Shown here one piece after another: positions 8,281 to 64,000 of a stretch of 64,000 bases of DNA. The notes below the pieces were generated by a model. That model saw nothing but the letters and a program-made list of their open reading frames with translations, searched no databases and had not been told where the DNA came from. Origin of the DNA: Psammoneis japonica (taxonomy: Eukaryota); the NCBI GenBank assembly GCA_008632985.1, contig QPGO01000058.1:248001-312000 (forward strand). The letters are read 5' to 3'. The stretch's first letter is position 1. Each line of letters starts with the position of its first letter. The position numbers were made by a program, and so were the translations under genes.

Positions 8281-8399
8281 GAAAGTCACGAAAAAGAAGA
8301 GAGGACGAAAGCTCCGCCAACCGTTCAAGTCGAAGAAGAACGCCAAGAGCCCAGGAAATCCAGAGGCAGGATATACCACCTCATCGCTGACGCCTCTTC

Positions 8400-9712: not shown

Positions 9713-9933
9713 CGATTCGGCATCGCCTGTTTTTCAGCTGGGCTGGGAAGCTCTTTGCTTTTCGTTGTTGCAGTGCATAGTGTCCAGTCTCGTCAGCCGT
9801 CGGCCGTCGGCCCATTCTCACAATTTTTCAATTTTTCCCGCTCGAGCTCTTCTCTGACCACGTGTCACACGGGATTCACGGAAAATCTGACTCCCGTGGA
9901 AAAATTTTGCGCGATCCATCCGCGCCGCGCACC

Positions 9934-22666: not shown

Positions 22667-23299
22667 GGTTGAACAAACTTTTCTTTGTTTTGGTTGTAAT
22701 GTACCGTACTAAAGGAGCTTGTCGATCAAGCAACACAGAAAAAGAAAAAGTGAGACGATTTTTGCGGATTGGAGGCGATTGGGATTTTGAGCGGGAAACG
22801 CTCACTCCGCCTGCCACGTCCGTTAATTTTTCTCGTGTAACGTTTTTCGACGAATTATTTATGAAAATGTGACGTTACCGTTGGTAGGATCTTGGTTCCT
22901 ATCGCAAAATTTTGTCGTTACGGGTTTTGTACGACAATCTACGAGCTTAAGATTAATACAAAGGAATACACATACATCTACTATCATTCTAATGCACTCA
23001 TGTCGGTTTCTGTCAATCCCATAATGTCTCTACAGCACGTACGGTTCGTACAGTATGGAGTGTCATTGGTTTGTCCGTGGTACTTTACAGTATGTTTTGT
23101 ACGATAGCACTCAAAATATGAAAGATATTCAACTCCGAAAGTGCAAGATTTTGATGGACCGGGCACAGGCTCAATTCCCATGACTGGCCCATTTTTGCAT
23201 CATTTGGCACAATAAACTCCTTCAAAATCGAAGGTCCGCAACATAAAAGGAGCCAAGGACATTAGAACCTTGCTCACCAGGCGTGTGGTCGATTGGGAC

Positions 23300-39580: not shown

Positions 39581-40318
39581 TCACATTCCCGACTCGTCAA
39601 GATTTTTCACTGCATCAACGCGACGCCTCTCCTGGACAGCAATGACTTCCCTTCGGACCACGCAAACTTCTGGCATTGTTGAGTCGCTTCCAGCTAACCT
39701 TTCGGTCAACCACGTTGTTGCTCCTTCCAAGTCAATTCCACTGGTGGCATCAGTCGTACTCCAAATAACGGCGTCTCTACGAGCCGTACGCCATTTCATC
39801 AATCGGGGCAAATTCAGCCAGAAACAACCGGGGAATGAAAAGCCTGGCTTCTCGTCGCTATCTTGTTCCTCCTCATCCACCGCTTCTTCTTCGATTGCAT
39901 AGTATGCTTCGTAGTTGGGAATTTCCACGCTATGTTTCGGCATGATCGAAACCGTTGAAGCATTGCGCTTCATCAATTGGGGCAAATTCAGCAAGAAACA
40001 ACCGGGGGATGAAAAGCATGGCTTCTCGTCGCTATCCTCTTCTTGTTCCTCCTCCGCTTCTACTTCGACTGCATAGTGTGCTTCGTAGTTGGGCATTTCC
40101 ACGCTAGCTTTCGGCATGTTCGAAACAACTGAAGCGTGACGCTTGCGAATCAAATGGCCAAACAAATCTCGCACGCAAGGATCAAGATGGAATGGAAAAT
40201 CGCGGGCCCGGCGCTCAATGTTCTTTTCGATCGCTTGTTTCTCGTGTTGGACATAGCCCAATCCCAACAACCCATCTTCGGGGGAGATGTTGGCCTCCCA
40301 ATCATGTCGGTAGTTCAT
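39581..40318 (-). CDS. Hypothetical protein with a duplicated ~58-aa acidic module
   Basis: KRxASxVSxMPKxSVExPNYEAxYA...DSDEKPxFSxPGCFxLNLPxLM occurs twice. Confidence 0.65.
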   Translation of the reverse strand: MNYRHDWEANISPEDGLLGLGYVQHEKQAIEKNIERRARDFPFHLDPCVRDLFGHLIRKRHASVVSNMPKASVEMPNYEAHYAVEVEAEEEQEEDSDEKPCFSSPGCFLLNLPQLMKRNASTVSIMPKHSVEIPNYEAYYAIEEEAVDEEEQDSDEKPGFSFPGCFWLNLPRLMKWRTARRDAVIWSTTDATSGIDLEGATTWLTERLAGSDSTMPEVCVVRREVIAVQERRRVDAVKNLDESGM

Positions 40319-40642
40319 GGTCGCGATGCTTTGCTTGTTGTGAGGTGAAGCAAACGGAAAGATGAGTGAACTCAACCGTAGATTTTGTTCCAGTACGATT
40401 GACCGTACATTTCTACGTAGATTGTAACGGCAGAATGCATTCAAACAAAAGTGGGACCAACTCCCATCTTGACGCGCATTGGGATTCTGAATGATCAGCT
40501 AACTATTGAAGCTACGCCTCTGGACGAATTCTCAATGCCTACCGTACTGTGCAAAATGCCGACATCGTGATAAGGATAAGTTCAGTAATTGCATTCAATT
40601 TAAACATAAGATTCGCCTTTCTACCCACCTGTAGTTTTTGCT

Positions 40643-41722: not shown

Positions 41723-42469
41723 TTATGAAAAGAATCAGCAGAGAACGGCAGCTAATCTATGGGTTTCGGTATGGGCCTATGGATTTGGTCAAAGTGCTGC
41801 TGATGATGGATGAGTTGGGGTTTGGAGTGTGAGTGATGGATGATGTGTGATGTGGATGGATGAGAGGTCGGAGGCAGTTTGCGCGCCTCATCGCGCGTTT
41901 CACCATGCTTCTTTGTTGGCGCTGTGTTGCCGTTACCGCTTCGTTTGCTTTCCATGGGGCAAGAGCAATGAGCACTTGCGGAAACAACGAAGCGACAAAT
42001 CTATTAACATTATTATTGCGAGTCGTTTGTTTGGGTTGATTTCATTGTCAACGAGGAAGAGGCGAACGGAGACGGAGACCGGTGCAACTTGACACGCGAC
42101 GCGAGAGCTAATGCCGATGGTGTACGGACGATGGCGAGCTCGAACAGATTCTCCCATATTTTGCCGCCAAAATGACTGGAGTGCCCTACTAGTAGCTACT
42201 TGACGGCATTCACGAGAAAAAATGAGAGTTCTCTTATCGTGCAAACCAATGAGTGCAAACCTCCCCCTGCTTGAGGCCTCGAAGCACGTTTCGTTTTCGA
42301 GTCGTGAATACGATTGGTTGGATTTTGTACGCGTTCTCAGTACTGATTTCTCGTGGACCAGCTTGGCTATCACAAGGGCGACAGATTTCATTCACAAAGC
42401 AATCACTTTTTGCTGATCGCTCCACGCTCAAAGGCAGAGAGAGACTTTTGGCGTTGTCGACAAGTGACA

Positions 42470-44685
42470 ATGAACCCTGTGCTTTCGGTCCGTGAGTTTG
42501 CCTCGGCTCGTCGCGGTTCAAGTGAGTTGCAACGAGTAGCTCGAATTTCACGCCAACCAGCGAGTGCGCTTCCTGATTTCTACTACGATGACAACTGCTC
42601 ACCTCCGGAGGTATCGACGAAAGCGACCTTCAAGAGCGAGAAGCGAATAGTTCACCCCCGCCACGACGAAGACGCTCTTCTTGAACTAACCCGTCAGGCC
42701 GATGAGCTCTGGGCCGTGGCTCAAGAGGCGTTGGGAGAAGAGGGCGACGACTTTGTTGTGAAGGACCCCACTCCCGACAAGACCGACTTGATCAACCGCC
42801 CTGAGGACTCTATCAAGGCTTCACCCGTTCGCCTAGGTCGTCGTAATGCGAGTGCACTGCCAGAATTCATTCTCCCTCACGAGGAACTCGCGACGCTTGC
42901 GCAAGAGGCGTTGGGCAACGACGACTTGTTTCTGCAGCATTATTTCCTCGCGGATATCTGCAAGGGACTATTCCAGGAAGAAGAGACACCAAGCTCACTT
43001 GGAATGGAAAGTCGAGCTTCTACGACGTCTTCTTCTTCTGGAGACGAAATCAAGAGACGATTTTTCGCGGACGACACCGATGAGCTGTGGGCCTTGGCTC
43101 AAGAGGCTTTGGGAGAAGAGGGCGACGACGTCGTTGTGAAGGAACCCACTCCCGACAAGACCGACATGATCAACCCTCCTGATGATTGTAACAAGGTTGT
43201 ACCCTTTCGCCTAGGTCGTCGTGGTACGAGTGCACTTCCAGAATTGATTCTCCCTCGCGAGGAACTCGCGTCGCTTGCACAAGAGGCGTTGGGCAACGAC
43301 GACGACTTGTTTCTGCCGCGTTATTTCCTCGAGGAGATCTGCAAGGTACTACTCCAGGAAGAAGAATCAGCGAAGCCAAGCTCACGTGGAATGGAAAGTC
43401 GAGCTTCTACGACGTCTTCTTCTTCTTCTGGAGACGAAGTCAAGAGACGATTGTTCGCGGACGACGCCGATGAGCTGCTGGCCTTGGCCCAAGAGGCGTT
43501 GAGAGAAGAGGGCGAAGGCTTCGTTGTGGAGGACCCCACTCCCGACAAAACCGACATGATCAACCCCCCTGAGGATTGTAACAATGCTTCACCCTTTCGC
43601 CTAGGTCGTCGTGAAACGAGTGCACTTCCAGAATTGATTCTCCCTCACGAGGAACTCGCGTCGCTTGCGCAAGAGGCGTTGGGCAACGACGACTTGTATC
43701 TGCAGCACTCTTTCCTCGAGAAGATCTGCATGGGACTACTCGAGGAAGAAGAATCAGAGACACCAGACACACCAAGCTCACTTGGAATGGAAAGTCGAGC
43801 TTCTACGGTGTCATCTTCTTCTTTTTCTTTTGGAGACGACTCCAAGAGACGATTTTTCGCGGGCGACGACGACAATGTTGCGTCTAAATTCAAGAAGTTG
43901 GTTTTCGTTTCGGACAAAACAACCGATAAAGCCGAGTCGTTGAACAACTCTATCAAGCCCGCTCTTCAAGCACTTTCGAAGCGACTACCGCTTTTTGAAA
44001 TGGTTGCATCGTCGTCCCGGACATTTGCCGATTCAAGGAGTGCGCGCTCTTTCCCCCTACCAACGACTCTGACTCGCTTCAAGGAACCAAAGCCCAAAGC
44101 TCTTAGCGAGTTGATTCTTCCCGAGCACTCGTCCGTATTGACGGGTTACGAAGCAGACGAAGAAAGTGCGAGTGGCGAAGAGTTCTCGCTGCAAAACGTG
44201 TCCGGGCACCTGAGTGATTCAAGTCTTCGACGTGCAATCAACGATTCCCATCTTGAGGAGTTCTCACCGTTTTCACTCTTGTCGGAGGGCGAGATCGTCC
44301 AAGCTCAAATGATTCATACAATTCGAGAACATGCGGAGACGGAGAAAATGTCAAGTGCGCCGAAAGTACCGGATGAGATTGTAATAGTAGGATCAGCTGG
44401 GCAGATTGAGGCGGATTGTAACTCGTCGCTAGCGGCTTGTCCCAATCTTTCAATATTCAAACCCGTGCTATTCCAACCTGGGGTTGTTGTTCCACGCTTT
44501 CTTCATGTTCGGTCACAGAGGACTGCGATGGAAGCGAACAACAGACGAAATACCACGATTATTCGTTGACGTGGGGCGACTACTGGCCGGGCTGTCAAGA
44601 AGAACTAAACAGTGAGGACGCGGAGGATGACGCCGATGATGCAAGCTTTCAGTCCCTTCCGGAGGAAGATCCTGAGCATTTGTAG
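42470..44685 (+). CDS. Acidic hypothetical protein with three tandem ~125-130-aa repeats
   Basis: Long ORF. Unit DELWALAQEALGEEGD...RLGRRxxSALPELILP...GMESRAS...KRRFFA at ~42697, ~43076 and ~43466. Possible frameshift near 44500. Confidence 0.7.
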
Positions 44686-46499: not shown

Positions 46500-48830
46500 G
46501 TCTTGTACATTGTTCAATGCAAATTGAGGTCCACTCCAACCACAACTCAAAGGAAGCTGCATTTGAGAGAGCCACATGCCTTGTTCATCATCAACAACAT
46601 TGAAAGTCAGGGCGGCCACAACCTCCCCTCCTGTGTGCTCCTCAAGTCAAAAAGACAAGAGAACAAGAGTGCCGGCCGGTTTTGTGGCTCAAGTCAAACC
46701 AAAGAATCAGCTGCCATTTTTTATTCAACCACCATGACAATTTGTCAAACACTGTGAATTCTGGGTGACTCGTGCTGTCTCTTGCTTTTTTTGCGCGATT
46801 GCTCCGACCTGTGTGCCCCGCTCTTTCTTGTGTGTTTGTTGCTTCTGGCAGGGGCATGCAGCACAAGCAAAAACAAAGCAAAAAGTGCAGTGCTCTTCCC
46901 ATTGGCTCAACCAGAAAATGCAGCAGTGTTGAAGCATTCCCCACAAGCAAGCTCTCAGCTGGGTGGCTGCTGGAAATGCCCCGCCCCCCTTTGCTGGCTG
47001 TGCCAACAGCAAAGCGATGTCCCACTTGAGATTTGATTTGGGCCTTTGATGATCACACAATGGCCTGCCTCCAGCAACAATGGGAGTGCTTGATGTGGAA
47101 GGAAGATTGGAAAAACAGTGAGTGCATGGACAAATCCAGGAAAGCAGTCGTTGTCATGCCGTGGTTGGGTGCATCATGTCAAAGGGCCCGACTTCAACCT
47201 TTGAAAAGCAGCACAGCACAAGTTCAGCAAGTTGTGCGTGGGTTGGCATTTGGTGGCCAATCTCATCTGCTCTGCAAGAATGCAACAGACATCAAGGACA
47301 AATTGCAGCATCCTTCTCAGGAGCACATGGAGGAGCCCAAGTGTGACACTCTGATTTCTTGCACCACATTTTGCGCCATTTGCAAGATGATGGGTGCTGA
47401 CGTTGCAAGTGCATGTGGACAGTTGATTGCTGCCAGAACAAGGAGGGTGCAATGACTGTCCCTGACATTGAGGACAGTGCTGCTCCTCCTTGTCCCACCA
47501 CTGCCAGCCAGATTCGAAGAAGCAATCCACAGCCAGAGAGTCAATGTCCAAAGAAGAAGGCAAAGATGTGGCATGAGCAAGGAACTTGGAACATCTTGGT
47601 GGCCTTGTTTGCCCCCCAACAGTGGCAACAGTGTTGCCTGCACTTAGTCTGTTGTTTGTTCTGTTCCTTCACCTTCTTTGAGACACAAAAAAGAGATCCT
47701 GTGCATTGACAAAGAATCTCATTGCATTGCTTGGTTGCTTTGGACCGATGACCTTTCTGTGTCACCAAACCATCTCTGATCCTCACTGGCTCCAAGACTT
47801 CACTGACAGCAACTGCGAATCTTGGCATGGACGTGCTCAATCGTTGCACCCTGTTTCCTTGGAGAGCGGTGCCTCCGCCCAGCAGCATGGCAATTCGAGA
47901 GTGATCTCAAAATGTTTGCTCAACTTGCTGTTCATCGTGTGGGTTTCTTTGCCCTGTGCGTGATTTGCGTGCACTCTGCTGAAGTTGTCATCCTCAAGAT
48001 CTGCATCATGATTTTGACTGCCTGGACCTTGGAACTTGGAATGCCCCCGGTTCGCGTCATTTTTGGCCGTCCGATGTTTCGATGCCTGCATTGCGACTCT
48101 GGCAAATGACAAGGACAAAAGGGTGAAGTGCTGCTCGTGCCGACTGCTTGTCAACGCCGCACTGCCCGCGTGCATCGTGCTCCACAGCGTTTTGTTTCGC
48201 GAATTTGGGAGGCCTGCGTCTCACTGGTGCTTGTTGTGTGTGGCGTTCAGAGAGGAGCCGCCAGTGGGGCACATGCCGCCGCTTTCACAACGACCGAAAT
48301 TTTGGTTGCCTTTCTAGCGACCCTTCAATTTCATGCTGGGAGGACACTGGTTGGTCTTTGTCACCGGAGACATGTCCAAATGTGCAGCAATGGATGACCC
48401 TGATCTTCAAGCCGGGGCGCGAACAGCGCATCAGGCGACATGGCTGGCTTTCTAGCCTCTTCAAGAGTGTTTTGATTCGGAACACACACAGCTCTCTCTT
48501 CGGCCGCGTGGCAACTGCCACAGAGGTGCGTTTGTGCAAAGAAATCACAAGGAGTCCAAAGGCATCACGTCATGTACAAGTCAATCAGCCCTCGTAAGAA
48601 TTTGGCTGCTCGGAGGTGAGCGGACGCAAACGAATTAGCCCAAAAGCATCACATGTCAAAACCAATCAGCCGCTTGGAACTCGCATGCTTCCATGCCCAA
48701 ATTGTCACAATTTTTGATTCTCTCCAAATTGCAAGCCTTGTGTTTGGTCATCACTGCTTCCACTGCTGCTGGTTCGGACGCCAAGAAGAAAGAGGATGCG
48801 CCTTTCCTGTGAGCGAGCCCAAGAAGGACG
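46500..48830. mobile_element. Degenerate TpA-depleted probable transposon remnant(s), family not identified
   Basis: Almost no TA over ~2.3 kb. CpG is partly retained in 47800-48550. No recognisable protein. Confidence 0.5.
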
Positions 48831-49291
48831 ACAAGGCACAGGTGGTTCCAAGAAGGACGACACGGTGCAGGCATTAAGACGGTTTCGAAAGATGCGGAGA
48901 CGAGCCGAAAGCTCCCGAGGAAAACGACAAGGAAGAAACCGACGAGGAAATCGTGACGAGCCATACAAAACGAGAAACCCATGAAAACTTGTAACTTCTC
49001 TCCCTAAACAAGTCGAGAGGAGTGTAATTAAGTGGTCAAAGCACTTTGTTATGTGAAATGTCCAAGTTTCCATCGTCCGGGAGAGGGTTCAAGTTGGCGA
49101 ACCGACTTTGGCGATTTGTGTAGAAAACATGCTAAGCTCTACGTACATAGAATCTGGCCCACTTTTGTACCCGTACCACCTTAAAAAAAACTTTTCTCGC
49201 TGATGGCTCCCGCTGTCCATGACGATGCACGATGCCACGGACAGCGGTAGTTATGTGAGCTGCAATTACAGCTAAGCCTGTGTTGCGTAGC

Positions 49292-50720: not shown

Positions 50721-51350
50721 TTACTGTTGCAAATGCAGCTCTTCAAATAGGTGGGTTTGATATTCGATCAACTCACGAATCTGAGCAGCTCTCTGATTAG
50801 TTTCTTCCGATATGCTTCCTTGATACTCTCCGGGACAGCCACCTCCTTTTTCAAGGGAACCTTGCGAACCTTCCGCTTGGAAATTGGGAACGTCTAACGC
50901 GCACTCCCGACAGTCCCGCTTCTCTCCACACATGCTGCACGTTAGGTGAAGAGGGTTTTCATTCACAAAAGTACACATGCGACAAGCCCAACTCTCGTTA
51001 TCACCGGTTCTTGTCTGTCTTGTACGTACTTCAACTTGCAACTGATGAGGGGACGATTCTTCTGGAGTGGAGCTAGCTGGCGTAATGCACTCTGTCGGTT
51101 CTTCGGGTTTTTCTTGCTCTGACTGGGGAGTGTCCCTTCCGTGTTCTTCTGTGAAACAACATAGTTTCTTGATAGAAGAATCCTTAGGGCACTGTAAATT
51201 GCCCGAATCTAATTGCGAAGAAGAGAGTTTTGCGTTTCGACTTGTACCACAAACTGAACAAGAATCATTACCGGAATCGACATTTGGGTAAGAGCAATAA
51301 GAGCAAGTCCATTCTTGCTGGATTGTTCCCAGGGAACAAGACGAGTTCAA
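50721..51350 (-). CDS. Protein with two RanBP2-type zinc fingers; true start uncertain
   Basis: WTCSYCSYPN...CSVCG and WACRMCTFVN...CSMCG. Confidence 0.8.
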   Translation of the reverse strand: MNSSCSLGTIQQEWTCSYCSYPNVDSGNDSCSVCGTSRNAKLSSSQLDSGNLQCPKDSSIKKLCCFTEEHGRDTPQSEQEKPEEPTECITPASSTPEESSPHQLQVEVRTRQTRTGDNESWACRMCTFVNENPLHLTCSMCGEKRDCRECALDVPNFQAEGSQGSLEKGGGCPGEYQGSISEETNQRAAQIRELIEYQTHLFEELHLQQ

Positions 51351-51929
51351 AGTTGAATGGAACTACTGGATACAATCATGATGAAGAGAACACTGTCAAT
51401 CTCGATACCGTATTGTTTTTGTGTTATTGTCAAGAGAGGTTGAAGAATGAAGAAGTGAGCGGGCGGGGTGTTTGGCTTCGCATTCGGTGGGGCTAATACA
51501 TTCGCGACATCATGTCCAAGTCATTGTTAACGATGGTTCTACACAATTCTTCGGCATAAAAGACAAAGCTGTGAGCAGCACGATTACAATCGCTTTTAAA
51601 GGAGACATTGTGGAGACATTGAATTTGTCCCAATCGTAAATTGTGTACATACGTACTACCAAAGCATTCTCTATTATGTCCCATTTTCGTCGTAAGCGAA
51701 ACGAGGTGTCAACCTTTTTGTCCTTCTTACACATATCCGGTCTTTTTGTCCCGTACGGGGGAAAGAAGATGTTCAAGAAATGACTGGTTGATCGTGACAT
51801 CCCAATCACTGTTGCAGAAGTACAACTCGTGACACATCATCGCGGTTGTTCTTCGCCCCCCGAAACTCCCTCATTCTGTGATGTGATGATGTCAGTGTGT
51901 TCTTTTTGAAAGATCGACATCTGTCTTAG

Positions 51930-52086
51930 NNNNNNNNNNNNNNNNNNNNNNNNNNNNNNNNNNNNNNNNNNNNNNNNNNNNNNNNNNNNNNNNNNNNNNN
52001 NNNNNNNNNNNNNNNNNNNNNNNNNNNNNNNNNNNNNNNNNNNNNNNNNNNNNNNNNNNNNNNNNNNNNNNNNNNNNNNNNNNNNN
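51930..52086. other. Assembly gap
   Basis: Run of N. Confidence 1.

Positions 52087-52140
<54 letters not shown>
52087..52140. repeat. (AC)n microsatellite
   Basis: About 27 AC units directly after the gap. Confidence 0.98.
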
Positions 52141-52142
<2 letters not shown>

Positions 52143-55100
52143 AGCCAGCTGACAAAGCCAAACCCTTTCTCCACCCACTCTCCATTGTGAGTCCATGCGT
52201 CGACCAACACGTGTGCACTTCACACTCCCGGGGTCACCTCATAGACTCTCGGAGATGCCTGACGGACGGTGCGCCAGGGTCGCATGCAGGTGGTTTGTCG
52301 CTGTGCCCTTCCGGATTTGGCTGAATGCACTGCAGAGCTTTCTGCACAAAACATGCGAGAAAATGTGCCGATTGGATGATGATCAATTTTGCCATCCCAT
52401 TGATGCCACAGCTTTGTGACGTCCAACTGATGTTGTCAAACCAAACACAGAAGCGTGTCATGCCATTGGAGTGGAAAGAATCGGCGGCTGTTTTGTTCAA
52501 TTTTGTCCAAGACTGCACAACTGCAAAATCTTTACTTTTTCGGTCACCGCCGACACACGTTGGTGCATGTCATCACATGTTCCACTTCGTTTCACCTTGT
52601 GAGTCATGACATGGAAACGGATGTCTCTCTTTGTCATTGCCCTGCAATGGCGTTGCCTTTCTTGCAACTCAAGAGTCGTTTTTTGGTGTTCGTTACAAAA
52701 ACGAGTTTTTGTTTTTTTGCAAGAAATGCACTCACTCACAGACTGCGCTTTTTCTCATCATGAAGCAGGCACCCAGTCTTCGCAACACCATGGTGTTGTT
52801 TTTTCATGTCTGTGTGAGACGTTGTTGGACTGAAGCTCGGAGATTCAAAACCAACGTAGTCTGGGGACTCATTTTCGGTCGGGCATGACATTTTTCCTGT
52901 TTTTTGAGATTTCGAGACAGTTGTGCCAATTTCTTGCTGCTTGGGGAACATCAAATGCAGCGGTGATGCTCCAGCAGTGCCAGCCAGTTGATGAGGTGGG
53001 ATTTCACATCACAATGTTGTTGATTGTGAGTTTGTAAACTCACTCAATGGAGTTTGCACATTGGTCTGGTTCAGCACGGTGAATCAGAGTTGGGCGACCA
53101 TGCAATGCTTCTGAAGCCAATCAGAGCAGACACAGAGGGGCATTGGCAGCTTTCTTTGGTGCACTTGTTGTCAAGGCAACAGCGACTTCATTTGGAGGTT
53201 GATGCTTGCAATTCTTTGTCGCTTTGAGTGTGCTGGGTGTGGTGCAGTGGTGCACACAGCAAATGGTTTCTTTAAAATGAATTGCAGATCTCAGCTGGAC
53301 AGGCAACCAGATGCAATTGGCATCTCCAGTCTTGCACAGTCTCGCCTTCAATGATGAGCAACGTAAAAACACAGAGCATTTAGAGTCGTGTTTTCCCTGC
53401 AAAATCACAAGAAATCAAGGTGACCGTGGTGAAATCATGCAAAGGAGGGGATTTGTGCATGTCACTGCGAGTGCAGCAGCCAAGTCAGCAATGCACCGTG
53501 TCTGTCAAAGCTGCAGTTCAACCATGTCTTCTTCACACATTGATGTGCAACATCCCGGCTTTTAAAGCCACAAAACATTCACCACAAAGAGAAAGAGTGC
53601 GATTGGCAAGCCATCACATTGTGAAGAGAAAACAAGACACGACAAATCCCAGTTTGAGCATGATGACACTCAAGCATTGATGTGAAAACTGACACTGGAC
53701 TCAACGCCCTTGTAAAAGCACAACTTTCAATGCACAACCAAATTGAAGCGAGTGGAAGAAGATGATGAAATGAGACGCCATGTCAGCGTGACAAGCGACA
53801 AACATGCGACATTGCACACAGCCAGCATTGGGCATGTTGCAACAACAAAAAAACCAGTTTTCTCCATTCCAACACCATGGCGCACTTCAACAGCAAGCAT
53901 CTGAATGGACACTGAACGGTGCAAAGCACAGCTGTCGATGTGCCGATGAAATTGATCATCGTCAGAACGGCACATTTTCTGGTGTGTTTTGTGCAGAAAG
54001 CTCTGCAGAGCATTTGGCGAATCACGGAATTGCTCGGTGACACATTTTTTGCCACCGTCTGTCAGAGGCATCTCCGAGACACCCCTTTGCAAGTGGTCCC
54101 ATGGGATGTGGGTGTGGGTGATGTGTGATGACATCATTGCATGCGTTGAGTTGGACATGTTCACATTCTTGCGAACATGTGCATGTCATCAAGTAAAAAC
54201 TCCCATCCCCTGGTTCAGGATTTTCCTGTTGCCATTGGAGTTTGTGTGCAGATGCAAAATTTGGCGACATTGCAACATGTAAAAAATTCATGACATGAAC
54301 AACACATCACCATGACATCAAAACCACATTCTCCACTTGCGAAGGGGTGTCTCCGAGAGTCCATGAGGTGACCCGGGTGTGCGAAGTGCGCGCGTGTCGG
54401 TCAACGCACAGACTCACGATGGAGAGTGTTCTCCACCAGAGGTGGGCCTGTCTGGTGCAGTGACTGGGCAAGCTCTCCCTTTGTGCCTTCTCTTCTGCAT
54501 TTCTTGGCCAAATGACCCAAAAGGATGTTTTCATCCCCAAACAGTTTTTGAGGCAACGTGCTGGGGAGCTTGCCAAAGGAGGCCCGGGCGCAATGACAAA
54601 CTGATGTGGAAAAAGAAAAGTCGGGTTGTGTGGCTCTCTCTCCTTGTTGTCTCATCTCTGCCATGTTGCAAAAACATGGCAAAACAATGTTTCACTTTCT
54701 TGTGCTGCTGTGCAAAACAATCTCAAAGTGCTGGTGCCAAACATTTGTGCGCAATTTTTGGCGGGCCGCAGACTTCAGTGCGAACTCTACAAGGACTCAG
54801 CTTGGCTGAACCACATTTTCAATCATCTTTGTTTTCATCAAAAAGCTGAGTGTCACAATGAAATGAGAGTCAAAGTGTCACAAGCACCTGTGGGAGAATG
54901 TGGTTTGGTGGGTCAAAGTGCAGCTTTGAACATGTTGTAAGACAAACACATTTTTGCACTGAATCAAAAATTGCAAGGCATCAGTTTTTGAATGCTGACT
55001 TCTTCTGACATGAGGGTCAAAATTGCACTTTGACTGTGTCAATCCATGTCCACTCTTGATGATCTTTTGATGCACATGTGGTTTCCTGGTCTTGCGAAGG

Positions 55101-55449
55101 GGCATCGTCGTCATCCATTGCCCCCAAGTCATGCTCAGTTTCAAGTCCCGGGGGAATCTGGTCAAAATTTCTGCGGGATTCACCACACCATGAATGGAAC
55201 CTTCATGGTCAGTCACGTTTTCCAAAAAAAAATCCATGGTGAGAAAAACTCAAAGCAAGCCAATGCCAATGAAGTGCGAGGCACTCGATCCCTGCAGCGC
55301 GCAGCACATCTTGCTGCACCTTCATCAGCATTGCTGTTGGAATCGGAATCTTCATTGTCTGGTGGGTGAAGTGTTTCATGATCATCGTTGTTGACTTTCT
55401 TTGTGCCGGTGGGAGGCTTGCTCTCATTGTTCTCACTTTTTTCAAGGTT

Positions 55450-56620
55450 CTCGGGGTTTTGAGGGCACAGATGTGATGTGATTTGTTGGTGATCAATGCC
55501 ACCACATCACTTGCACCTTTTCTCAAAGTCATTGTTTCTTTTTCTTTTTCCTGCAGATTTGACGGCAATGCCAGTCATGCAAATTTCTCCGCACTTCTTG
55601 GATGCTGCTGCCTCCTCCAACAGAAGCCGCTTGATCTTTTTGCACTTGGACAATGCACGGCGATGCTTGACTTCCACCCCATTTGCACTCTTCCAAGCGC
55701 TTTCAATTTTTCTCGTGGGTTTTCAGTGACTTGAGGGTGTGACCATTGATTTCTATCCCAAGCTTGTCAAACACACTTGTGGTGCAATCCACCTTGCCCA
55801 GGATGCTTGTGCCAACACTCATGTGCACTCTTGAGGCAAGTGCCATTGTTTGTGAGTGTGTTTTGGTCTTTGGCGCATGCTTTGCCACTGACTGATTTCT
55901 TGCCTCATTGATTTGCGAATCACAAGAGTGGCGGATCTCTTGCAAGTGCTCAGTGGCTGTGGACTTGTTGCAGATGGGCTTGAGTTGGGAACGCAAAATG
56001 GCATCCTCAGCATTGCATTGATGCTGACCCATTTTTTTGCCTTGTGACACAGAACACCAGGCTTTGTTGAAATGCACATGGTCATCAAAGTGGTGCTCCA
56101 GCACTGCCTTCATTTGTTTTTTGAATGCATCAAAATCACTTTCCTTGCATTGCTGGTTTGCATGACTCCAGTTCCACTTTAGATGCATCACATCCACCAA
56201 TGTGCAGAGAGACGTCTTCTTGGGGGCTTGTGCAAGAGCAAAGACTGGCTTGTGCACTGCTTTGGTTTGGGTGGTTCGGATCTTGCAACCAAGCTGGTGG
56301 GTTGATGTTGAGTGGAAGATTTCACAGATCCAGCAACCACCTGTTGTTGGGCTCTCTTGGTGTCTCAGCAATGACTCCCTTTTCCAGTTCTTCCTTGAAT
56401 GAATGTTGGCATTTGGTTTGGGTCGTGGAATCACCGTTGGCAACAACACACTCAACATGAACAGCCCGCCACATGCAGAGGTCTTTATGAGCAACAACAC
56501 ACCAGCTCATGACTCCATTCCTTTCAAGCTGCCCTCGCAATCAGTGGGACAGTCATGTTCTGGTTCGGGTGCATTTGGACTCTTTTTCTTCCAAGATTCA
56601 TGGAAGGAACATCTCTTGGC
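55450..56620 (-). mobile_element. Mutator-like (MULE) transposase pseudogene
   Basis: HDCPTDCEGSLKGMES, VECVVANGDST, AVLEHHFDDHVHFNKAWC and DSQINEARNQSVAKHAPK.KTHS resemble the N..GSS..ME / GDGDS / H.F.DH..C..WC / Q.NE..N..I...PK motifs of Mutator-like transposases. No Tyr in the 265-aa ORF. Confidence 0.7.
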
Positions 56621-59600
56621 CAACACAACCATCAAAAACAACGACACAAACAACAAACACAATGAGGAGAAACAAAATTGTCAAAAGCTTGCCATGCACT
56701 CTCAGTGTCACAGAGAGACCAAAACCCTCCTCCTCACAAAATGTCAAGCATCTGCTCCAAAAGTGCCATCATGCCCTCCGACGCATCACCCAACTCTCCT
56801 GTCTCCCGCCGTTCAAGAAGGCAAAGCACAAGCATGAAGGGGAAGATGTTCTCTTTCTTTGCATCTGCTGCAGACAAGACCCAAGCCTGTGGAAAATTTT
56901 CTGTGAAGAGTTGGATCTGTTTGATGAAACTGGGGGAAAAGGAGAAAACATGCAGCTTGCCCCAAGGGTTGTGAAGCGAAAGCGTTTCTCTGTTGCAGGG
57001 CTTCCGTTCTTGTCAATGGATGCTGTGGACATGGCTGGAACAACTGCAAACATCATCCATGGTGTGTTGAGGGTGGCATCAAGGAGACATGGCCTGCCCC
57101 AGGCCAGCACCATGGACACAATGGACCCGAAGATGAGATGTCCGACAGCAGCAATGGTGACATCAAAAGTGGTGTAAGTGGCTGTGATGAATGATCAGGA
57201 ACAATGAGAAGATCTGATGCCTTGTCCACACATTTGCCACTGCAAGATTCTCTCCTTGCACTGATCCCACGCAGATAAAATGGGCTCCAGTTTTGGTCGC
57301 AGATGAGTGTGGGGACTTTGCACTTTTTCCACACAACCTCTGGCATCTAATTTGTGCAGCTCTGCATGAATCCTCTGCAGACAGATCCAACAATTGGCTG
57401 CCACCTTAAAGAAAGGCTCCTTTGGTGCTTGTGTCAGTGGTGGGCACTGCTGTGTGTGTGCATCAAAAGGAGTCAGGAGAAGAAAAGATGTGCTTGCATG
57501 CTCCTTTGGCTTGCTGTTGACATCAACTTTGGCTGTGCTCACAAGTGCAACCTTCTTTATGAGACAAAACAATTCAAGATGATGTGACAAGAGCTCTCTT
57601 CCCCAGCAGAGAGAAAGAAGCAGCAGCAGCAGCAGTGCTGAGAAGAAGGGCGCGGCTTGGTGCCTCTGATGCTGGGAGCCTTGTTGGGAGAAAGATAAAA
57701 GCAGCAAAAGACTGCACTGCAAAGAAGTTCTGTGGAAGAGCACCAAGCACAGAGAAGCCAGGGGCACTTGCAAAGGACTCAGCAGGGTGGCCAAGGTGGC
57801 TGTGCACACCTCCTTTGTTCTGTCACTGGTGTGTTTGGTGAAAATTGGCACCAAATCAGAGCTCGCAAGCTTGTGTAGTTGGCAGAGTGTGACACAGAAG
57901 TGAGACCTTGCTTGGCTCTCAATTTGGCAGGTCAAAATGAAATGCAGAGCATTGCAAGATGAGCAAGCTGACAAGCGGCTTCTCCTCAAAGCACATTGTG
58001 AGACATGCCGCACTGACCAGATCACAAACATTTGCAAATTTTGAGTGGCTCTTTTTCTCTTTTGCAAAATCACATCACTTTTCATTCCAAACCTGTGCTG
58101 TCCTTTAAGGCAAGCTGGTGATGACAGATCTCAGCCCACCACAATCAACAACTTCCTGCCCTTTGCAACATCTCCATCAGCTCCTCTCACAGCTGATGAG
58201 AGCCATGCCACAAACCTCAATTTGCTTCAAATTGAGGCACTCTGCCACTGCAAAACAGCTGGCACTCAGGGCAACTCCACACACACAAAGCCTGTGTGCT
58301 TTTTTTGTGTGGCAAGTTGACAATGTGGCAACTTTCAGTTGTTGCAGCCAAACTTCACACAACCTGGTTGCTCTTCAAAGAAGCTGTGTGGTGGGCATGC
58401 AAGCAAGCAATGCAAAGAGCTGCAGTTGGTCTCACTTGTTGTGAGTTGACACACATGCTTGTTGCCAATGAGAATTCTTGTCACAACAGAAATCATCAAA
58501 CAGCTGCTGTCAACTGATCAATGCACAATGCTTTGTTTTTTTTTCAGCACCTTGCCCTTGAATCATCTGGCAAGTCATCTCACAAGTGGCAGCAACACAA
58601 GAGAGAGCCCTTGAGTTAAGAGCACACAGTGGCCTTGTTGGTGCTTGTGAACAAAATTGTGGGTTTGGCCTTTGTTGTGAGTCTGTTTCATTTTCAGGTT
58701 TGGTGGTGGTGTTTGCATGAATTTGTGCAGTTGCACAACACCACAAATGTGTCTGGGGCATTCCACAAAAAAACATTTGTCAGATTGATCTGAAGATCAA
58801 AGATGACTCAAGAAGTTGCTCATGCACAAAAATGTTTGAGACACGTGCTTTCAAAGCTGATGAGCAATCTGTTGTTTAGACGCAATGTGCTCACATTTGA
58901 GCTCCAGCTGGCAAATGATCACAAGCCTCTGCTCCTGCAGCTGCCATTGCAAAGAAAGACACTTTTTGGGAGGATTGCCCAATCAGACAAAATGCTGCAC
59001 ACCAGAGCTTGCATGTGCTGCTGCACTCTTGCCACCTCCAGCAAGAAGCTCACTTTGCTGTGCATGTTGGCTTCCTTGTGTGGTCCACTGGTGGCACAGC
59101 AGTCCAGCACAACAAAAAGGACAAAAAGAGCAGAGAGGAGTGGTGAGCAGTGCTTGAAGAAGGTGCGCATCAAAACAGTGGCCAATGCACACTTGCTTGC
59201 ACAGGGCTTTTGACACAGCAGTTTTCCCATGGTGTGTTTGGCAGTTTTGGGAAGATGATGTCTTCTTGCAGACTGTGAGCATGCCATCTCTTGACTGAGA
59301 AAATGATGAGAAGAAAGAGACAGCTTGAGCTCACACAACAAGATGTGAAAAAAGCCAGCTGCAGCAGCAGCGCATTTGAGGACAGCAAGAGAAGTGAGGA
59401 CAAACACTCTTCTTCTTGTGTGACCAATGTCCTGAAGATGAAGTGGTCCAAGATCAGTTTGTAGCCCCCAACACTGAGCCACAGCTAGATGAGAAGTGTG
59501 TGCTCATTTGCAGACCTCTCTCTCGTCGTGAGTTAAGAGCATGTCGCACCCAGCCTCTCCAGCACCATCGATGTGCCTTCTTTCCATTTTACTCAGTGCC

Positions 59601-59946
59601 CATCCACAGCATCTCCAGTTCTGACGGCCAGATCTCCTGGACTTTCAGTCATGTGTGCAACTAGGCAGTTGGTGTTCAGCAAAGCCATCATGATGACTGT
59701 GCACTGCTTGCATGTCTTGTGATTACATTGTGTTGCTTAATAAAGTTAAACGAAAATAAATGGCAATCAACCTAGGTAGAGAGCAGGATGGGTTCGGAAC
59801 GGGCTTTCCTACCTAGTTAGAGTGTTGCCGAGATGCACTAATAGCCAGAGTTTTCGTGTATTTTGTAGTGAAGTCTTTCATGACAGTTGAGATAGCCACT
59901 CCAAATAAAATTCGAAGACTTGATGACTACTCTTGCACATAAAAAG

Positions 59947-61278
59947 TTAGGGACATTGAGAGTGATCAACACCATCCCCCCTCATAAAAGGAACAATGTG
60001 ATTGGCAGCAAATGATCGTACAATTTCATACTGCTCGGCTTCATCCACCATGTCAAGTAAATCAAGCTCATCTGCCACATCGGCATTGTAGCGAGGCGCA
60101 AGTAAGCGCAGAACGTTGGCCGCTTCCATAGCATAATTTCCATCTGCGCTGCTGTCCTTTCCTTGACTTGTCGGAAATTCTTTTCGATTCGCGGGCGGCT
60201 GCCCCCCATCCCCGGAATTTGAGTGTGGGGATGCTTCGCGGTTGCCTCCACGTGCTTCGGCATCCCCATCCTGATTCGGGGAACTATCATCATCACTCAT
60301 GTCGTCTGGTTTCGAACCGATTCGAGAGCGTTTTGGTCGTGGCGCCTCGGAGAGTTTATGAATAATAGCATGAAAGGAGATTCTATCGGAGAGTGTGGAA
60401 GGAAGCGTTGTAGACGTGATACTCGTGGACTCGGCCGCCTGGAAGTTCTCGAGGATATATTTAGAGGCTGCCGCTGCCGCGCCGCCCTCTTGCACGTGTT
60501 TGTAAAGCGCAACACCCCCGGGGGCATCGTCACAATCGGCGAACCAGTAAAATGTCCAGGAAGACGTAAGGTCTGACAAAATAGATACGATTCCACGCAT
60601 TTGGTTCAGAAACGCTGCCGCGAAGTGCTCGGCAATGACTTGTGGACTGTGATCCTTATTCGCTAGGTTTTTCGGCTTTTTCAGCTCTATCTGAGCATCA
60701 AATGAATTACGGATAGTCTTGTTTCTCACGTTCTCTGATGTGGTGATGACAACATCCGTTGTTCCCCTAATTCGTCTGCTGTCGGAATCCACCCCCCGAA
60801 TTTCGACATCCAAGAGACCGCGGATCGGCTGAACGTCCGCAAAAATATAGTTGCCCGGTAATCGCACATTTTCCGCTAGATGCTTCATGTAAGAGGTACG
60901 GTTCTCAGAAGAATCTTCGTGACTGCTGTTCCAATGAAAAACGGGGCACTCGGGAAATGTCGACGGCATCGTGGGCCAACTCGCCGCCTTCTCTGGCATA
61001 TCCAAAAACATGCTCAGCAGAGCCCGCTTGGATCTTGTGGTAGCATCAGAGAGAACAATGGTTTTAATCTTTGCTGAGTAATCTACAGCCATGCGGGCTA
61101 TCGCCGCTGTTTCCTCTGTCGTAAACAGCGCCGGGGACTGCCGCTGCTGCTGCGGTGGACCTAGGGTGTACTTGCCACCAGCTGCAAGTGATGCGAACCC
61201 ACCAACTTCATCCCCCTCCTCGTTGATCAAACACTCGACACCTTTTTTTGCCCAGCCATCTCTCGAGCTCAGCATCAT
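59947..61278 (-). CDS. Crinkler (CRN)-like protein with restriction-endonuclease-fold domain
   Basis: Intact intronless 443-aa ORF. IRGTTDVVI...QIELKK...PQVIAEHFAA...SILSDLTSSWTFYWF fits a D-ExK-Q REase pattern. Short N-terminal header ending GGKYTLGPPQQQ. Confidence 0.65.
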   Translation of the reverse strand: MMLSSRDGWAKKGVECLINEEGDEVGGFASLAAGGKYTLGPPQQQRQSPALFTTEETAAIARMAVDYSAKIKTIVLSDATTRSKRALLSMFLDMPEKAASWPTMPSTFPECPVFHWNSSHEDSSENRTSYMKHLAENVRLPGNYIFADVQPIRGLLDVEIRGVDSDSRRIRGTTDVVITTSENVRNKTIRNSFDAQIELKKPKNLANKDHSPQVIAEHFAAAFLNQMRGIVSILSDLTSSWTFYWFADCDDAPGGVALYKHVQEGGAAAAASKYILENFQAAESTSITSTTLPSTLSDRISFHAIIHKLSEAPRPKRSRIGSKPDDMSDDDSSPNQDGDAEARGGNREASPHSNSGDGGQPPANRKEFPTSQGKDSSADGNYAMEAANVLRLLAPRYNADVADELDLLDMVDEAEQYEIVRSFAANHIVPFMRGDGVDHSQCP

Positions 61279-61499
61279 TACTCAGTCGCACACCACCAAC
61301 ACCTTCTACGGTTATCCTAATGGGTTCAGCCATGGCCACAGATGTTCTTTATGTTTGAGTTCACTCCCGGCTGGCTTGAGGTGAGTTATTCGTTATTCTC
61401 AATTCGTTCTGCACGAGATCTGATCGGGTGAAGGACGGACTGGAGAAAGGGGCCCGGACGGAACGAAGCAAGAGAAGGGGGGTGACAGAAATGGAATGA

Positions 61500-63960
61500 C
61501 AAACAGAACGCATCGAGGAGGGTGATCAATCCTCCCTTCTGTGGTCACAAGAGTTGATAGATGGGAGCAACGCTGAGAGTCCCATGGCACTGTGGACTGA
61601 CTCATGCGGCAAAACTCTGTCAGCTTGGGCACCCGTCATGGTTCTTGGCTTGTCACATGGAGTTGAAAAAATGACTTCAGAGCCATCAGACAGAAGTCAC
61701 AACTGCATCCTGCATCCTTTCTCACAGCAGTGTTGCCTCACATGGCATGGCTTGGCTCTTAGATGATGAGGTGCACCACCATTTGGAGTTGGTGGTGTCC
61801 CTCTCCAATCTCTAGACAACCCACTCCAGTGTTGCAGTTTGGTCAAGAGGAGGAGAGCAGAGAAGGGCGGAGTGTCAATCTGTGACTTGTTCATGTGTGG
61901 GATGCCCACCATTGACCTGTTTCTATCTGGAAAGACAATCCTGTGTCTGGCCTCATGTCCCATTTGGAAAGTGCCATAAATCTGAGGGCTGTGACAACAA
62001 GATCAGGCTGGGACCTGGCGCCAAAAAGCTCCTCCTCAAAGTCTCCCCAAAAAGCCCCAAAAGAGATCAGGCACTCACAGAACATGCTGAAATTAGAAAA
62101 TTTAAATGCAAAGAGATGCAACAGCATGATGGCACCATCCCCCCGAGTGCAGACACAACAAAGTGTCCCCTCCGACACCTTTTGGTTTCTCTGTCATTGG
62201 CGCAACTGCCTGATGTCCCAAAGTGCCCAAGGAGGTTGGCATTCCACCACACTCTCACAAGGGACAATCCTGCAGGCACTTGCATGGAATTGTGGTTTTT
62301 GTGTCAGAGACAAAAGAAGTTGAAGAAGTGAGTGGGGTGCTTGGCTTCACATGGATCAGGTGGGGGCCAACACATTCGCCCGACGCGACACACACGTCCT
62401 GACAAAGTCATCATTGCTGATGGCACTGTGATTCTACACAATTCTTTGGGCATGAAAGACAAAGTTGTGAGAGGCATGATTTCAACAGCTTGAAGGAGAC
62501 ATTGTGGCAAATTGAATTTGCCCCAATTGCAAATTGTGCACATGCGTGCAACCAAAGCTTCTCTGTTGTGTCCCATTTAGTTGTGTGCGAAACAAGGTGT
62601 GAACCATTTTGTCCTTCCCACACAAATCTGCCATTTTGTCCCGCACTGACAAAAAGAAGATGTTCAAGAAATGACTGGTTGATCATGACATCTCAATCAC
62701 TGTGATGTGATGATGTCAGTGTGTTCTTTTTGAAAGATCGATCTTTCTGAGGTGTCAGCTTCCGATGCATGGCATGTGACATGCACACAAGATGTGTGGT
62801 GCAAACAGGCACATGCACGCATGCACACATGCACTCAGCTGACAAAGCAAAGCCCTGTGCTCCCCCAGAAGTGGGCCTGCCTGGTGCAGCGACTGGGCAA
62901 GCTCTCTCTTTGTGCCTTCTCTTTGTGCCTTCTCTTCTGCATTTCTTGGCTAAATGACCCAAAAGGATGCTGTGTTTGTCCCCAAACAGTTTTTGGAGCA
63001 ACGGGCCAGCTTGCCAAAAAGAGGCCCATGTGCAACAACAACCTGGCACAGAAACAAATGTCGGGGTGTGGCTCTCTCTCCTTGTGCTTTCCTCTCTGCC
63101 ATGTTGCAAAAACATGGCAAAACAGTGTTTCACTTTCTTGCACTGCTGCAAAACAATCTCGATGTGTTCCAGCTCTGGGTGGGACCTGTGCTGCTGAACT
63201 GTGACATCAATGGTTTTTTAGATTATGCCGCATGTCGCGCATGCAGATGGCTGCATGTGACATTCTATGAAATTGTTTCATGCTTCCTGTTTTGCGAAGC
63301 CAAAGGCTTTCTATTTTCAACATTTGTGAGAGTGAAAATGCGCTGGGTGTGTTCTTTGGTGTCTGCAGAACATGCCCGTGCAAACTGTCAATGACATGCT
63401 TCAAGTGTGAAGGAGGAGATGCATTCATAAAATTGCCTCTTTTTCTGTTGGTGATCATTTGTGTTTTGGTCACTTGATGAATTCACCATGGAGCTTGCAC
63501 ACAGAGTTCTGTCATGGGCCCAATGTCACACGGAGTCCCACCTGGGGCTGGAACCCATCTCTCAAACAAAGGCTCGTTTGGCGCTTGCATCTGCAGCGGG
63601 CACTGCAGTGTGTGTGCATCAAAAGGAAGGAGGAGAAAAGATGTGCTCGCACACTCCTTGGGCTTTCCAAGACAGGGTCAGAGCTTGTGCACACAACAAC
63701 ATGTGAAAAAAGTGAGGTGCGCAGCTCCTGTGGCAAGTGACAAGACAAGGGGCTCAAACAACACATTCTTCTTCTTGTGCAGCCAATGGCTTGAAGATGA
63801 AGTGGTCCCAGATGAGTTTGCAGCCACCCAACACTGAGCTGCGGTGCAGCAGGATGAGAGGTGTGTGCTCATTTGCGCTTCTTGCCACACTTGCGCAAGA
63901 GCGATGCTGCGTCCACAACACCAATCATGTCAAATTGATCTGTCCGCTGGCCACGCCCCA
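61500..63960. mobile_element. TpA-depleted degenerate repeat block; 62400-63900 is a paralogue of parts of 51.5-59.5 kb
   Basis: Direct sequence similarity to several segments of the 51.5-59.7 kb cluster. TA is nearly absent. Confidence 0.75.
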
Positions 63961-64000
63961 CTCCCGGATTTAGATTCGGATTCCGCTCACCACCTTCCAA

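Follow-up and report, generated by a model that had tools for sequence, protein, structure and literature searches.

The question raised by this locus was why two related copies of one repeat, lying in the same stretch of DNA, differ in their content of the dinucleotide TA. The stretch (hereafter the window) comprises 64,000 nucleotides from Psammoneis japonica (contig QPGO01000058.1 of assembly GCA_008632985.1, positions 248,001 to 312,000 of the forward strand); all positions below are those of the window. The initial annotation, made from the letters of the sequence, had paired a TA-containing segment next to a gene with a TA-poor segment further along, and had proposed that TA and CG both change to TG or CA. 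We consider it likely that blocks of repeat, transposon, and pseudogene DNA here undergo two context-specific transition processes in the chromosome, both of which end in TG or CA. The window contains an intact silicon transporter gene in TA-normal DNA (20998–22662, reverse strand; Pfam E = 5e-208), whose relatives are diatom transporters with at most 80% identity, and the window is therefore diatom nuclear DNA.

TA-depleted blocks

TA counts across the window were bimodal. Two-state segmentation of these counts delimited six depleted blocks, which make up 22.7 of the 64 kb (35% of the window). For each block the observed/expected ratio (o/e) is given:

6566–8371, block 1, TA-depleted: TA o/e 0.08, CG o/e 0.37.
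9692–10950, block 2, TA-depleted: TA o/e 0.10, CG o/e 0.80; coextensive with a truncated copy of a RecQ-like helicase.
23264–30169, block 3, TA-depleted, with the strongest decay of all six: 11 TA in 6.9 kb; TA o/e 0.03, CG o/e 0.15.
46507–48963, block 4, TA-depleted: TA o/e 0.05, CG o/e 0.56; the right part has normal CG counts.
51822–59461, block 5, TA-depleted: TA o/e 0.05, CG o/e 0.35, TG/CA 1.78.
61395–64000, block 6, TA-depleted, running off the window end: TA o/e 0.10, CG o/e 0.34, TG/CA 1.71.

Within the blocks the TA o/e ranged from 0.03 to 0.10, the CG o/e from 0.15 to 0.80, and TG/CA from 1.47 to 1.85; the CG o/e outside them was 0.89–1.20. The borders were step-like at 100-bp resolution; at 30169, for example, successive TA counts were 0 0 0 0 0 0 0 0 on one side and 4 1 7 4 4 2 7 4 on the other. 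The GC content of the blocks was 0.47–0.51 and thus not lowered. Per kb, the blocks had 3.6 TA, 20.5 CG, and 216.9 TG plus CA, compared with 37.7, 56.3, and 143.6 in the rest of the window, so that a deficit of 69.9 TA plus CG stood against an excess of 73.3 TG plus CA. The four pyrimidine-purine (YR) steps together came to 223–245 per kb and were constant over all 12 segments. Given this mass balance and the constant YR total, the blocks look as if about 90% of the TAs and about 64% of the CGs in otherwise ordinary DNA of this genome had been turned by transitions into TG or CA. Both strands were hit, because the blocks contained nearly equal numbers of TG (2432) and CA (2451). The ratio TpA/ApT was 0.03–0.11 and (CpA+TpG)/(ApC+GpT) was 1.62–2.19 in the blocks. 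Twenty-one of the 64 1-kb windows fell within the cut-offs used in a preprint on TpA hypermutation in the chlorarachniophyte Bigelowiella natans (Mettrop et al., bioRxiv 10.64898/2026.01.13.699255; hereafter the B. natans preprint), and all of these lie in the six blocks.

The TA-normal segments too had a low TA o/e (0.53–0.61), with TG/CA of 1.09–1.20. These values might reflect a weak genome-wide leak of the TpA process, or ordinary avoidance of TA.

Comparison of copy A and copy B

The two copies from which the question arose begin with the following segments:

51415–51929, forward strand, copy A, first segment, TA-normal: 20 TA and 26 CG in 511 bases; upstream of the open reading frame (ORF) at 50721–51362 on the reverse strand.
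62295–62751, forward strand, copy B, first segment, TA-poor: 2 TA and 9 CG in 455 bases; inside block 6.

The segments originally paired, 51535–51810 and 62428–62702, proved to be paralogues, and their homology extended further than first stated. Self-blastn matched 51415–51812 with 62295–62703 (75.6% over 426 columns) and 51876–51929 with 62700–62751 (92.6%), with a 67-base insertion in copy A relative to copy B. The 30-base stretches at 51631–51660 and 62524–62553 aligned as described, five TAs reading as two CA, two TG, and one AA, and one CG reading as TG; the five nearby TA and CG changes given as further examples were also found as quoted.

Counts for the pair were taken from the core of a MAFFT alignment, in which 428 aligned bases contained 82 mismatches (81% identity), 49 of them transitions and 33 transversions. 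The 20 TAs of copy A, one of them opposite a gap, corresponded in copy B to 8 TG, 6 CA, 1 TA, 2 AA, 1 TT, and 1 AC. Its 24 CGs in the core, five of them opposite gaps, corresponded to 8 TG, 3 CA, 4 CG, and 4 other dinucleotides, so that 11 of the 19 aligned CGs had become TpG or CpA. In the reverse direction, one of the two TAs of copy B was shared and the other was TC in copy A, and a single TG/CA of copy A was CG in copy B. Direction tests gave 14:0 for TA (p = 1.2e-4) and 11:1 for CG (p = 0.006). As the initial annotation had expected, differences were enriched at these dinucleotides: TA and CG span 76 of the 428 positions (18%) and were touched by 37 of the 82 mismatches (binomial p = 1e-8).

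Direction of change

Four independent lines within the sequence indicate that TA and CG are the ancestral state and TG and CA the derived one: a silicon-transporter pseudogene, a helicase fragment, the differences between TA-poor paralogues, and the dinucleotide densities of copy A. The first two are gene remnants within blocks:

27022–30061, forward strand, silicon-transporter pseudogene in block 3, in pieces at 27022–27794 and 29633–30061 with about 1.8 kb between them.
9833–11005, reverse strand, truncated copy of a RecQ-like helicase: residues 1–392 of about 612, in a 420-amino acid open frame; 36 homologues.

The pseudogene has frameshifts, stops, and zero Tyr codons, and it was recognized by Pfam (1.7e-14 and 8.3e-8) and by a hidden Markov model of 112 family members (59.7, 49.0, and 11.4 bits). 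At conserved columns it was identical to the family in 103 of 206 cases. Of the conserved Leu and Ala columns, 20 of 29 and 14 of 18 were retained, whereas all 4 conserved Tyr were lost (two read TGC) and, of 7 conserved Arg, one remained (three are TGT and one is CAT). In the helicase fragment 109 of 143 conserved columns were identical and Arg was kept in 6 of 7, whereas Tyr was kept in 0 of 2 (TGC and CAC) and is missing from all 420 amino acids.

In six pairs of paralogues of which both members are TA-poor (868 aligned bases, 161 mismatches), CA was opposite TG in 17 of the 25 double-transition mismatches. About 16 such cases are expected if TA at background density decayed independently in each copy, and none if the copies were made after decay. 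The TA and CG densities of copy A equal those of the background. Had the ancestor been TA-free, transitions of two opposite kinds would have been required at a quarter of all TG/CA sites, far above the 12.8% divergence elsewhere, which argues that the TA and CG of copy A are ancestral. A second fragment in the "before" state was found outside the blocks:

11262–11391, forward strand: 11 TA in 130 bases; reverse-strand paralogue of 54080–54209 (1 TA), which lies inside the inverted-repeat element of block 5 described below.

Its aligned states relative to 54080–54209 included five TA opposite TG and two TA opposite CA. The proposal that TA and CG converge on TG and CA was therefore supported not only for the pair but also window-wide, by the balance of deficit and excess, the protein remnants, the CA:TG doubles, and the variants in a sequencing run presented below. 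Since the mutated copies all converge, polarity would be misjudged from a consensus over every genomic copy, and the convergence of repeat families in composition would mislead consensus-based dating in the same way.

Several observations concern the remnants themselves. The pseudogene lies head-to-head with the intact transporter, which served as its functional comparator, at a distance of about 4.4 kb, and at its 3' end it comes within about 100 bp of the right border of block 3. The two share only 32–38% protein identity, so the pseudogene is an old paralogue rather than a recent duplicate. Relatives of the helicase fragment were unnamed marine sequences and one Cyclotella entry; it probably comes from a transposon-borne helicase family of diatoms. 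A metagenome scan with the helicase alignment yielded 80 loci at 23–44% identity, mostly GC-rich and RecQ-like, none of which was TA-free (the lowest TA o/e was 0.31, at 71% GC), and these loci were consequently of no use for polarity.

Rates and flanking bases of TA and CG loss

In block 2 about 83% of the TAs were gone but only about 10% of the CGs, and the right part of block 4 was similar. Because TA was lost where CG is nearly intact, TA loss can be told apart from CpG loss and is by far the faster of the two.

The two losses also differed in their neighbors (R, purine; Y, pyrimidine). Among the TAs surviving in blocks, 2 of 80 were in the context RTAY, compared with 435 of 1553 elsewhere, and 40 of 80 were in YTAR, compared with 279 of 1553 (p = 1.5e-13). 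The remaining share of normal was 0.04–0.05 for GTA and ATA and 0.13–0.18 for CTA and TAA. The ratio of the products RCAR and YTGY to RTGR and YCAY was 1.42 in blocks and 1.15 elsewhere (p = 7e-5). TA loss thus favors RTA/TAY. Surviving CGs showed no bias for R and Y flanks (p = 0.10); CpG loss in the blocks did depend on its neighbors, ACG/CGT and CGA/TCG remaining at 0.29 of their normal share and CCG/CGG and CGC/GCG at 0.43–0.49.

The trinucleotides AAT/ATT, hinted at as a secondary target by six of the run variants, were also considered; they showed no depletion (0.87) and were ruled out.

Changes after insertion

Copy A is interrupted by an element within block 5:

52176–54428, inserted element of 2253 bp with terminal inverted repeats, inside copy A and itself TA-depleted.

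This element is flanked by a perfect 9-bp target duplication, TTCTCCACC, at 52167–52175 and 54429–54437, and its inverted arms match in two stretches, one of 80 bp (86%) and one of 94 bp (80%). Mutator-like elements have target duplications of 9–11 bp and long terminal inverted repeats, and by these two features the inserted element would be Mutator-like. No ORF of at least 70 amino acids within 52087–54428 had a Pfam hit to a transposase or any other family, and the element may be non-autonomous or decayed. Its outer arms had 10 differences, nine of which were CG or TA on one arm and TG or CA on the other, and which therefore arose after insertion. In a public sequencing run that contains 82% of the window's sampled words (run X1), the summed contig depth over the right part of the element was 627–1355, compared with about 60 nearby.

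Contigs of run X1 were also compared with the window in pieces at single-copy depth. They differed at 19 of 6185 bases in blocks and at 1 of 3139 outside (about 10-fold; p = 0.004). The 40 variant rows used, of 703, held 22 events, which are to be read as alleles or strain variants: 4 TG/CA flips, 3 TA changes, 5 CG changes, 9 other transitions, and 1 transversion. A TG/CA flip is the expected outcome of a short-lived TA or CG intermediate, and the four adjacent flips compare with 0.06 adjacent pairs expected by chance. There were thus signs that the process acted after insertion and recently.

The switch within copy A

The change from TA-normal to TA-depleted DNA falls within copy A, between 51821 and 52141, upstream of the ORF at 50721–51362. 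The features involved are:

51930–52086, assembly gap of 157 N where TA-normal DNA gives way to TA-depleted DNA, followed by an (AC)n run at 52087–52140.
52141–52175, forward strand, copy A resumed beyond the gap: counterpart of copy B at about 62833–62868.
54429–54730, forward strand, copy A, second segment, TA-free: paralogue of 62856–63166, with 295 aligned bases, 42 mismatches, and five CA:TG doubles.
62856–63166, 63561–63665, and 63682–63876, forward strand, further segments of copy B: match 54427–54730, 57405–57512, and 59322–59511 of copy A.

Copy A therefore runs in the order 51415–51929, gap, (AC)n, 52141–52175, inserted element, 54429–54730, 57405–57512, and 59322–59511, and copy B in the order 62295–62751, about 62833–63166, 63561–63665, and 63682–63876. 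The match of 52141–52175 to copy B indicates that the two copies are colinear across the gap.

The initial annotation had suggested that the end of the repeat abutting a gene promoter was protected. In favor of this, the copies are colinear and the switch lies inside copy A, about 50–800 bp from the ORF at 50721–51362. Against it, the switch coincides with the unbridged gap (no bridging contig was found among the listed run X1 contigs), and elsewhere depleted DNA comes to within about 114 bp of an ORF end (61281 versus 61395). From the layout, a protected repeat end beside the gene promoter seems plausible, but it is unproven because of the assembly gap at the same border. A switch inside one repeat copy, and a TA-rich fragment (11262–11391) about 300 bp beyond block 2, fit targeting by position (e.g., by chromatin state) better than targeting by homology.

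Proposed explanation and alternatives

We propose that the blocks are changed in two steps. A fast A:T to G:C transition at TpA on either strand, preferring R-T-A/T-A-Y, would yield TpG or CpA, and a slower C:G to T:A transition at CpG would be ordinary decay of methylated cytosine. Copy B (at 62.3 kb), inside a block, would have lost its TAs and most of its CGs, while the first segment of copy A (at 51.4 kb), just outside, would have kept the ancestral state. Targeting would follow a silent, methylated chromatin state and not sequence homology. As a tentative chemistry for the TpA step, we put forward a TadA/ADAT2-like enzyme that deaminates adenine in DNA; a T-A-Y target is similar to U33-A34, the context found in substrates of TadA/ADAT. 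By analogy, the TpA step and the de novo TpA hypermutation of B. natans would be one process.

Several findings weigh against this explanation or limit it. The pair was held to give the mutation spectrum directly, as before and after. It does give the spectrum qualitatively; however, 45 of its 82 differences lie outside TA and CG and 33 are transversions, so the pair is old and no clean snapshot. Its polarity itself rests on other loci in the window, and its border coincides with the assembly gap at 51930–52086. The samples from the protein remnants are small (4 + 2 conserved Tyr columns), and in the pseudogene two of the four Tyr columns fall in a stretch of poor alignment and show Leu and Thr. 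In 21 polarized events the strand-resolved prediction from the flanks (RTAR to CA and YTAY to TG) was unsupported, with 3 TG and 2 CA from RTAR and 3 TG and 2 CA from YTAY, and the four TG/CA flips were in the contexts CTAG, ATAA, CTAT, and TTAC, none of them RTAY. Parts of block 5 are at single-copy depth, so the term repeat may not apply to all of the depleted DNA. Finally, with 40 of 703 rows compared and run X1 possibly derived from the assembly's own sample, its variants are not measured new mutations.

Because TA is its own reverse complement, T to C and A to G changes are indistinguishable from sequence, which leaves room for a different chemistry at TpA. The change could pass through a modified thymine (5-hydroxymethyluracil, or a base-J-like product of a TET/JBP-type dioxygenase, mispairing with G), or it could come from error-prone patch repair by a polymerase-eta-like enzyme with a WA motif (W, A or T), triggered by deaminated methyl-cytosines. 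The modified base 5-hydroxymethyluracil prefers TpA in dinoflagellate DNA, WA is a hotspot of polymerase eta, and the loss of TA and CG from the same blocks is what the repair-coupled model predicts. However, AA steps were not depleted (o/e 1.22 in blocks versus 1.15), which argues against a WA-motif polymerase, and TA was lost from block 2 and the right part of block 4 with CG nearly intact, so that TA loss needs no CpG deamination. The hypermutable regions of B. natans likewise had almost no C to T changes (bioRxiv 10.64898/2026.01.13.699255), and on these grounds we regard a different chemistry as unlikely. Far less credible is a reversed polarity, in which TG and CA are ancestral and the 51.4-kb copy gained TA (and CG) by C to T change at CpA/TpG, as in the repeat-induced point mutation (RIP) of fungi. 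RIP can also leave TA aligned to both TG and CA, and a naive consensus would be TA-poor, because copies at least 80% alike accumulate on copy B: in run X1 the summed contig depth was 458–841 over 61775–62676, compared with about 56–70 nearby and 37 on copy A, a hint of many similar copies and not a copy number. Nevertheless, copy A has the background composition and the TA-free state is the abnormal one; gaining CG from TG or CA needs a transition opposite to that which gains TA; where functional relatives have conserved Tyr, the gene remnants have Cys or His codons; most double changes between TA-poor copies are CA:TG; TpA/ApT in the blocks is the opposite of a RIP footprint; and the GC content of the blocks is not lowered. 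Reversed polarity is thus largely refuted.

Two further alternatives do without sustained mutation in place, and both are very improbable. According to one, the blocks were poor in TA and CG from the outset, being either foreign DNA (viral or acquired horizontally) or DNA under selection against these dinucleotides, for instance as a means of evading nucleases. The targets in B. natans are integrated viruses (bioRxiv 10.64898/2026.01.13.699255), and most block ORFs here are without detectable relatives, including all 86 in blocks 5 and 6 by Pfam and two long ORFs by homology search. This account leaves unexplained the exact mass balance with its constant YR total, the decayed pseudogene of a host family (silicon transporter) within a block, the arms of a single inserted element that differ at exactly TA/CG versus TG/CA, the run X1 variants, which show changes continuing in place, and the existence of TA-rich paralogues of block sequences. 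According to the other, element RNA or cDNA was edited by an ADAR- or APOBEC-like activity before integration and the mutated copies were then inserted, which would explain why borders of blocks are borders of inserts; the step-like borders, and the agreement of block 2 with the extent of the truncated helicase copy to within about 150 bp, are as this predicts. Yet the strands were equally hit, a DNA-type inverted-repeat element and a gene pseudogene were affected, the two arms of one element diverged after insertion, paralogues decayed independently, same-locus variants differ by TG/CA flips, and copy A was mutated in one part but not in another.

Comparison with known systems

The closest likeness is to B. 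natans, in which localized TpA hypermutation affects integrated giant-virus and virophage DNA (bioRxiv 10.64898/2026.01.13.699255). Of the 231 mutations in two integrated viral regions, 230 were A to G or T to C; every one of these lay at TpA, and the rate was about 1000-fold that of the background. Clusters poor in TpA and rich in CpA+TpG contained an excess of transposon domains, and the authors proposed an ADAT2-like adenine deaminase (same preprint). The diatom blocks share the change from A:T to G:C at TpA, giving TpG and CpA on either strand, the confinement to discrete regions, and the footprint of depletion in TpA with enrichment in CpA+TpG. They differ in several respects. B. natans is a rhizarian and the window belongs to a diatom, a stramenopile; TA o/e was 0.45 in the B. 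natans virus region and is near saturation here (0.03–0.10); and TA loss in the diatom is spatially coupled with CpG decay, whereas the term CpG occurs 0 times in the available text of the preprint. The diatom targets include a host-family pseudogene and a DNA transposon, and no viral genes were recognized. The RTA/TAY flank preference has no counterpart in the available part of the preprint, where flanks are not discussed. De novo mutations were measured in B. natans, whereas here the run X1 variants serve as a proxy.

RIP in ascomycete fungi is similar in that defense-like, context-specific transitions occur in repeat and transposon DNA, with sharp borders, a tie to methylated DNA, and destruction of reading frames. 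Its chemistry is opposite: RIP turns CpA into TpA and leaves AT-rich DNA with a high TpA/ApT, whereas the diatom blocks lose TpA, at a GC content of 0.47–0.51 and TpA/ApT of 0.03–0.11. The RIP signature of C:G to T:A change at CpA, high TpA/ApT, and AT enrichment was absent from the blocks. RIP also mutates both duplicate copies over their shared length, whereas the first segment of copy A keeps 20 TA and 26 CG and its paralogue 2 and 9. Since one copy of the pair escaped and apparently single-copy stretches were hit, the data do not show dependence on duplication.

The CpG half of the signal (CG to TG or CA, with CG o/e of 0.15–0.56 in five of the six blocks) is as expected from deamination of methyl-cytosine, and diatom transposable elements carry cytosine methylation (PMC9998398 and PMC6604790). 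CpG decay of methylated transposons leaves the TA loss unexplained, which is faster and occurs also where CG is near normal (block 2, 0.80). ADAR and APOBEC of animals are comparable as deaminase-type, neighbor-dependent agents of transitions against selfish nucleic acids, and ADAR favors a 5' U (Discussion of bioRxiv 10.64898/2026.01.13.699255). They act, however, on RNA or single-stranded cDNA and are strand-asymmetric, whereas the diatom changes accrue in the chromosome and include a DNA transposon and a pseudogene; the strand-asymmetric footprint of RNA or cDNA editing was absent from the blocks (TG 2432 versus CA 2451).

The first report of TpA-specific hypermutation directed at unwanted DNA dates from 2026 and concerns a single chlorarachniophyte. 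The B. natans preprint was the only account of TpA-directed hypermutation found in the literature outside subscription journals, and no description in diatoms was found there. Its available text makes no mention of diatoms, CpG, or flanking context. In the available parts of two diatom papers, the word TpA occurs 0 times in a mutation accumulation study of Phaeodactylum (PMC6604790) and deamination 0 times in a study of diatom DNA methyltransferases (PMC9998398). The diatom blocks would be a further case of this very recently described hypermutation, and they add saturation, co-located CpG decay, a host-gene pseudogene as target, and a flank preference. On that reading the diatom footprint extends TpA hypermutation to a main group of ocean primary producers, widens its targets beyond integrated viruses to transposons and a host-gene pseudogene, and separates it from CpG methylation decay; the RTA/TAY preference narrows the search for the enzyme, and a scan of TA o/e could map silenced DNA in any diatom assembly.

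It is quite possible, although we would stop short of calling it probable, that diatoms run an active, domain-restricted DNA-editing defense that is the mirror image of fungal RIP. In such a defense an adenine deaminase with a tRNA-anticodon-loop-like preference (T-A-Y) would erase TpA to saturation from silenced transposons and dead host-gene copies, far faster than methyl-CpG decays. If so, the system would be of ancient origin and common across the SAR (stramenopile, alveolate, and rhizarian) supergroup, given that de novo measurements in a chlorarachniophyte show the same signature, and it would be a major unrecognized shaper of algal genome composition.

Contents of the blocks and other features

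The blocks contained 187 ORFs of at least 70 amino acids in their 22.7 kb, all of them tyrosine-free and rich in Cys and His. Since TAA and TAG are impossible without TA, many of the long ORFs in blocks are spurious, a trap for gene callers. The identified targets in the blocks were the silicon-transporter pseudogene, the RecQ-like helicase fragment, and the inverted-repeat element. Of these 187 ORFs, Pfam gave credible matches only to the silicon-transporter pieces and the helicase, the rest being far under the cut-offs, and the 86 ORFs of blocks 5 and 6 had 0 usable hits. No viral genes were recognized in the blocks, where most ORFs remained without assignment. Within block 5, no homologue at E ≤ 1e-3 was found for the ORF at 55706–56506 (reverse strand), nor any among 1.84 billion representatives for the ORF at 57198–58130 (reverse strand); with these misses, the repeat family of copies A and B stays unclassified. 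Rfam gave no match in 51000–64000.

Between blocks 5 and 6 lies a TA-normal island (59462–61394) with one long frame:

59947–61281, reverse strand, ORF of 444 amino acids.

The region 59955–61318 was present in contigs of two other, related organisms at about 97% (38 differences in 1364 bases). Beyond it these contigs turn unlike the window, so they do not share, at 80% likeness, the TA-free DNA that flanks it. The ORF at 50721–51362 gave a weak RanBP2-type zinc-ribbon lead in a protein atlas, with a high score but low recognition. Contigs of run X2, from the same sample as run X1 and with no library kind on record, covered little beyond two ORFs. At 63128–63578 the summed contig depth in run X1 was about 56,568, compared with about 60 nearby, and many contigs broke at 63516–63559, which suggests a very high-copy short repeat core. 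TA-normal DNA also held tandem repeats, with units of about 380–400 bp at 84–86% identity at 42699–43872, within the ORF 42347–44569 (forward strand), and units of 175 bp at 86% identity at 39795–40144, within the ORF 39581–40498 (reverse strand).

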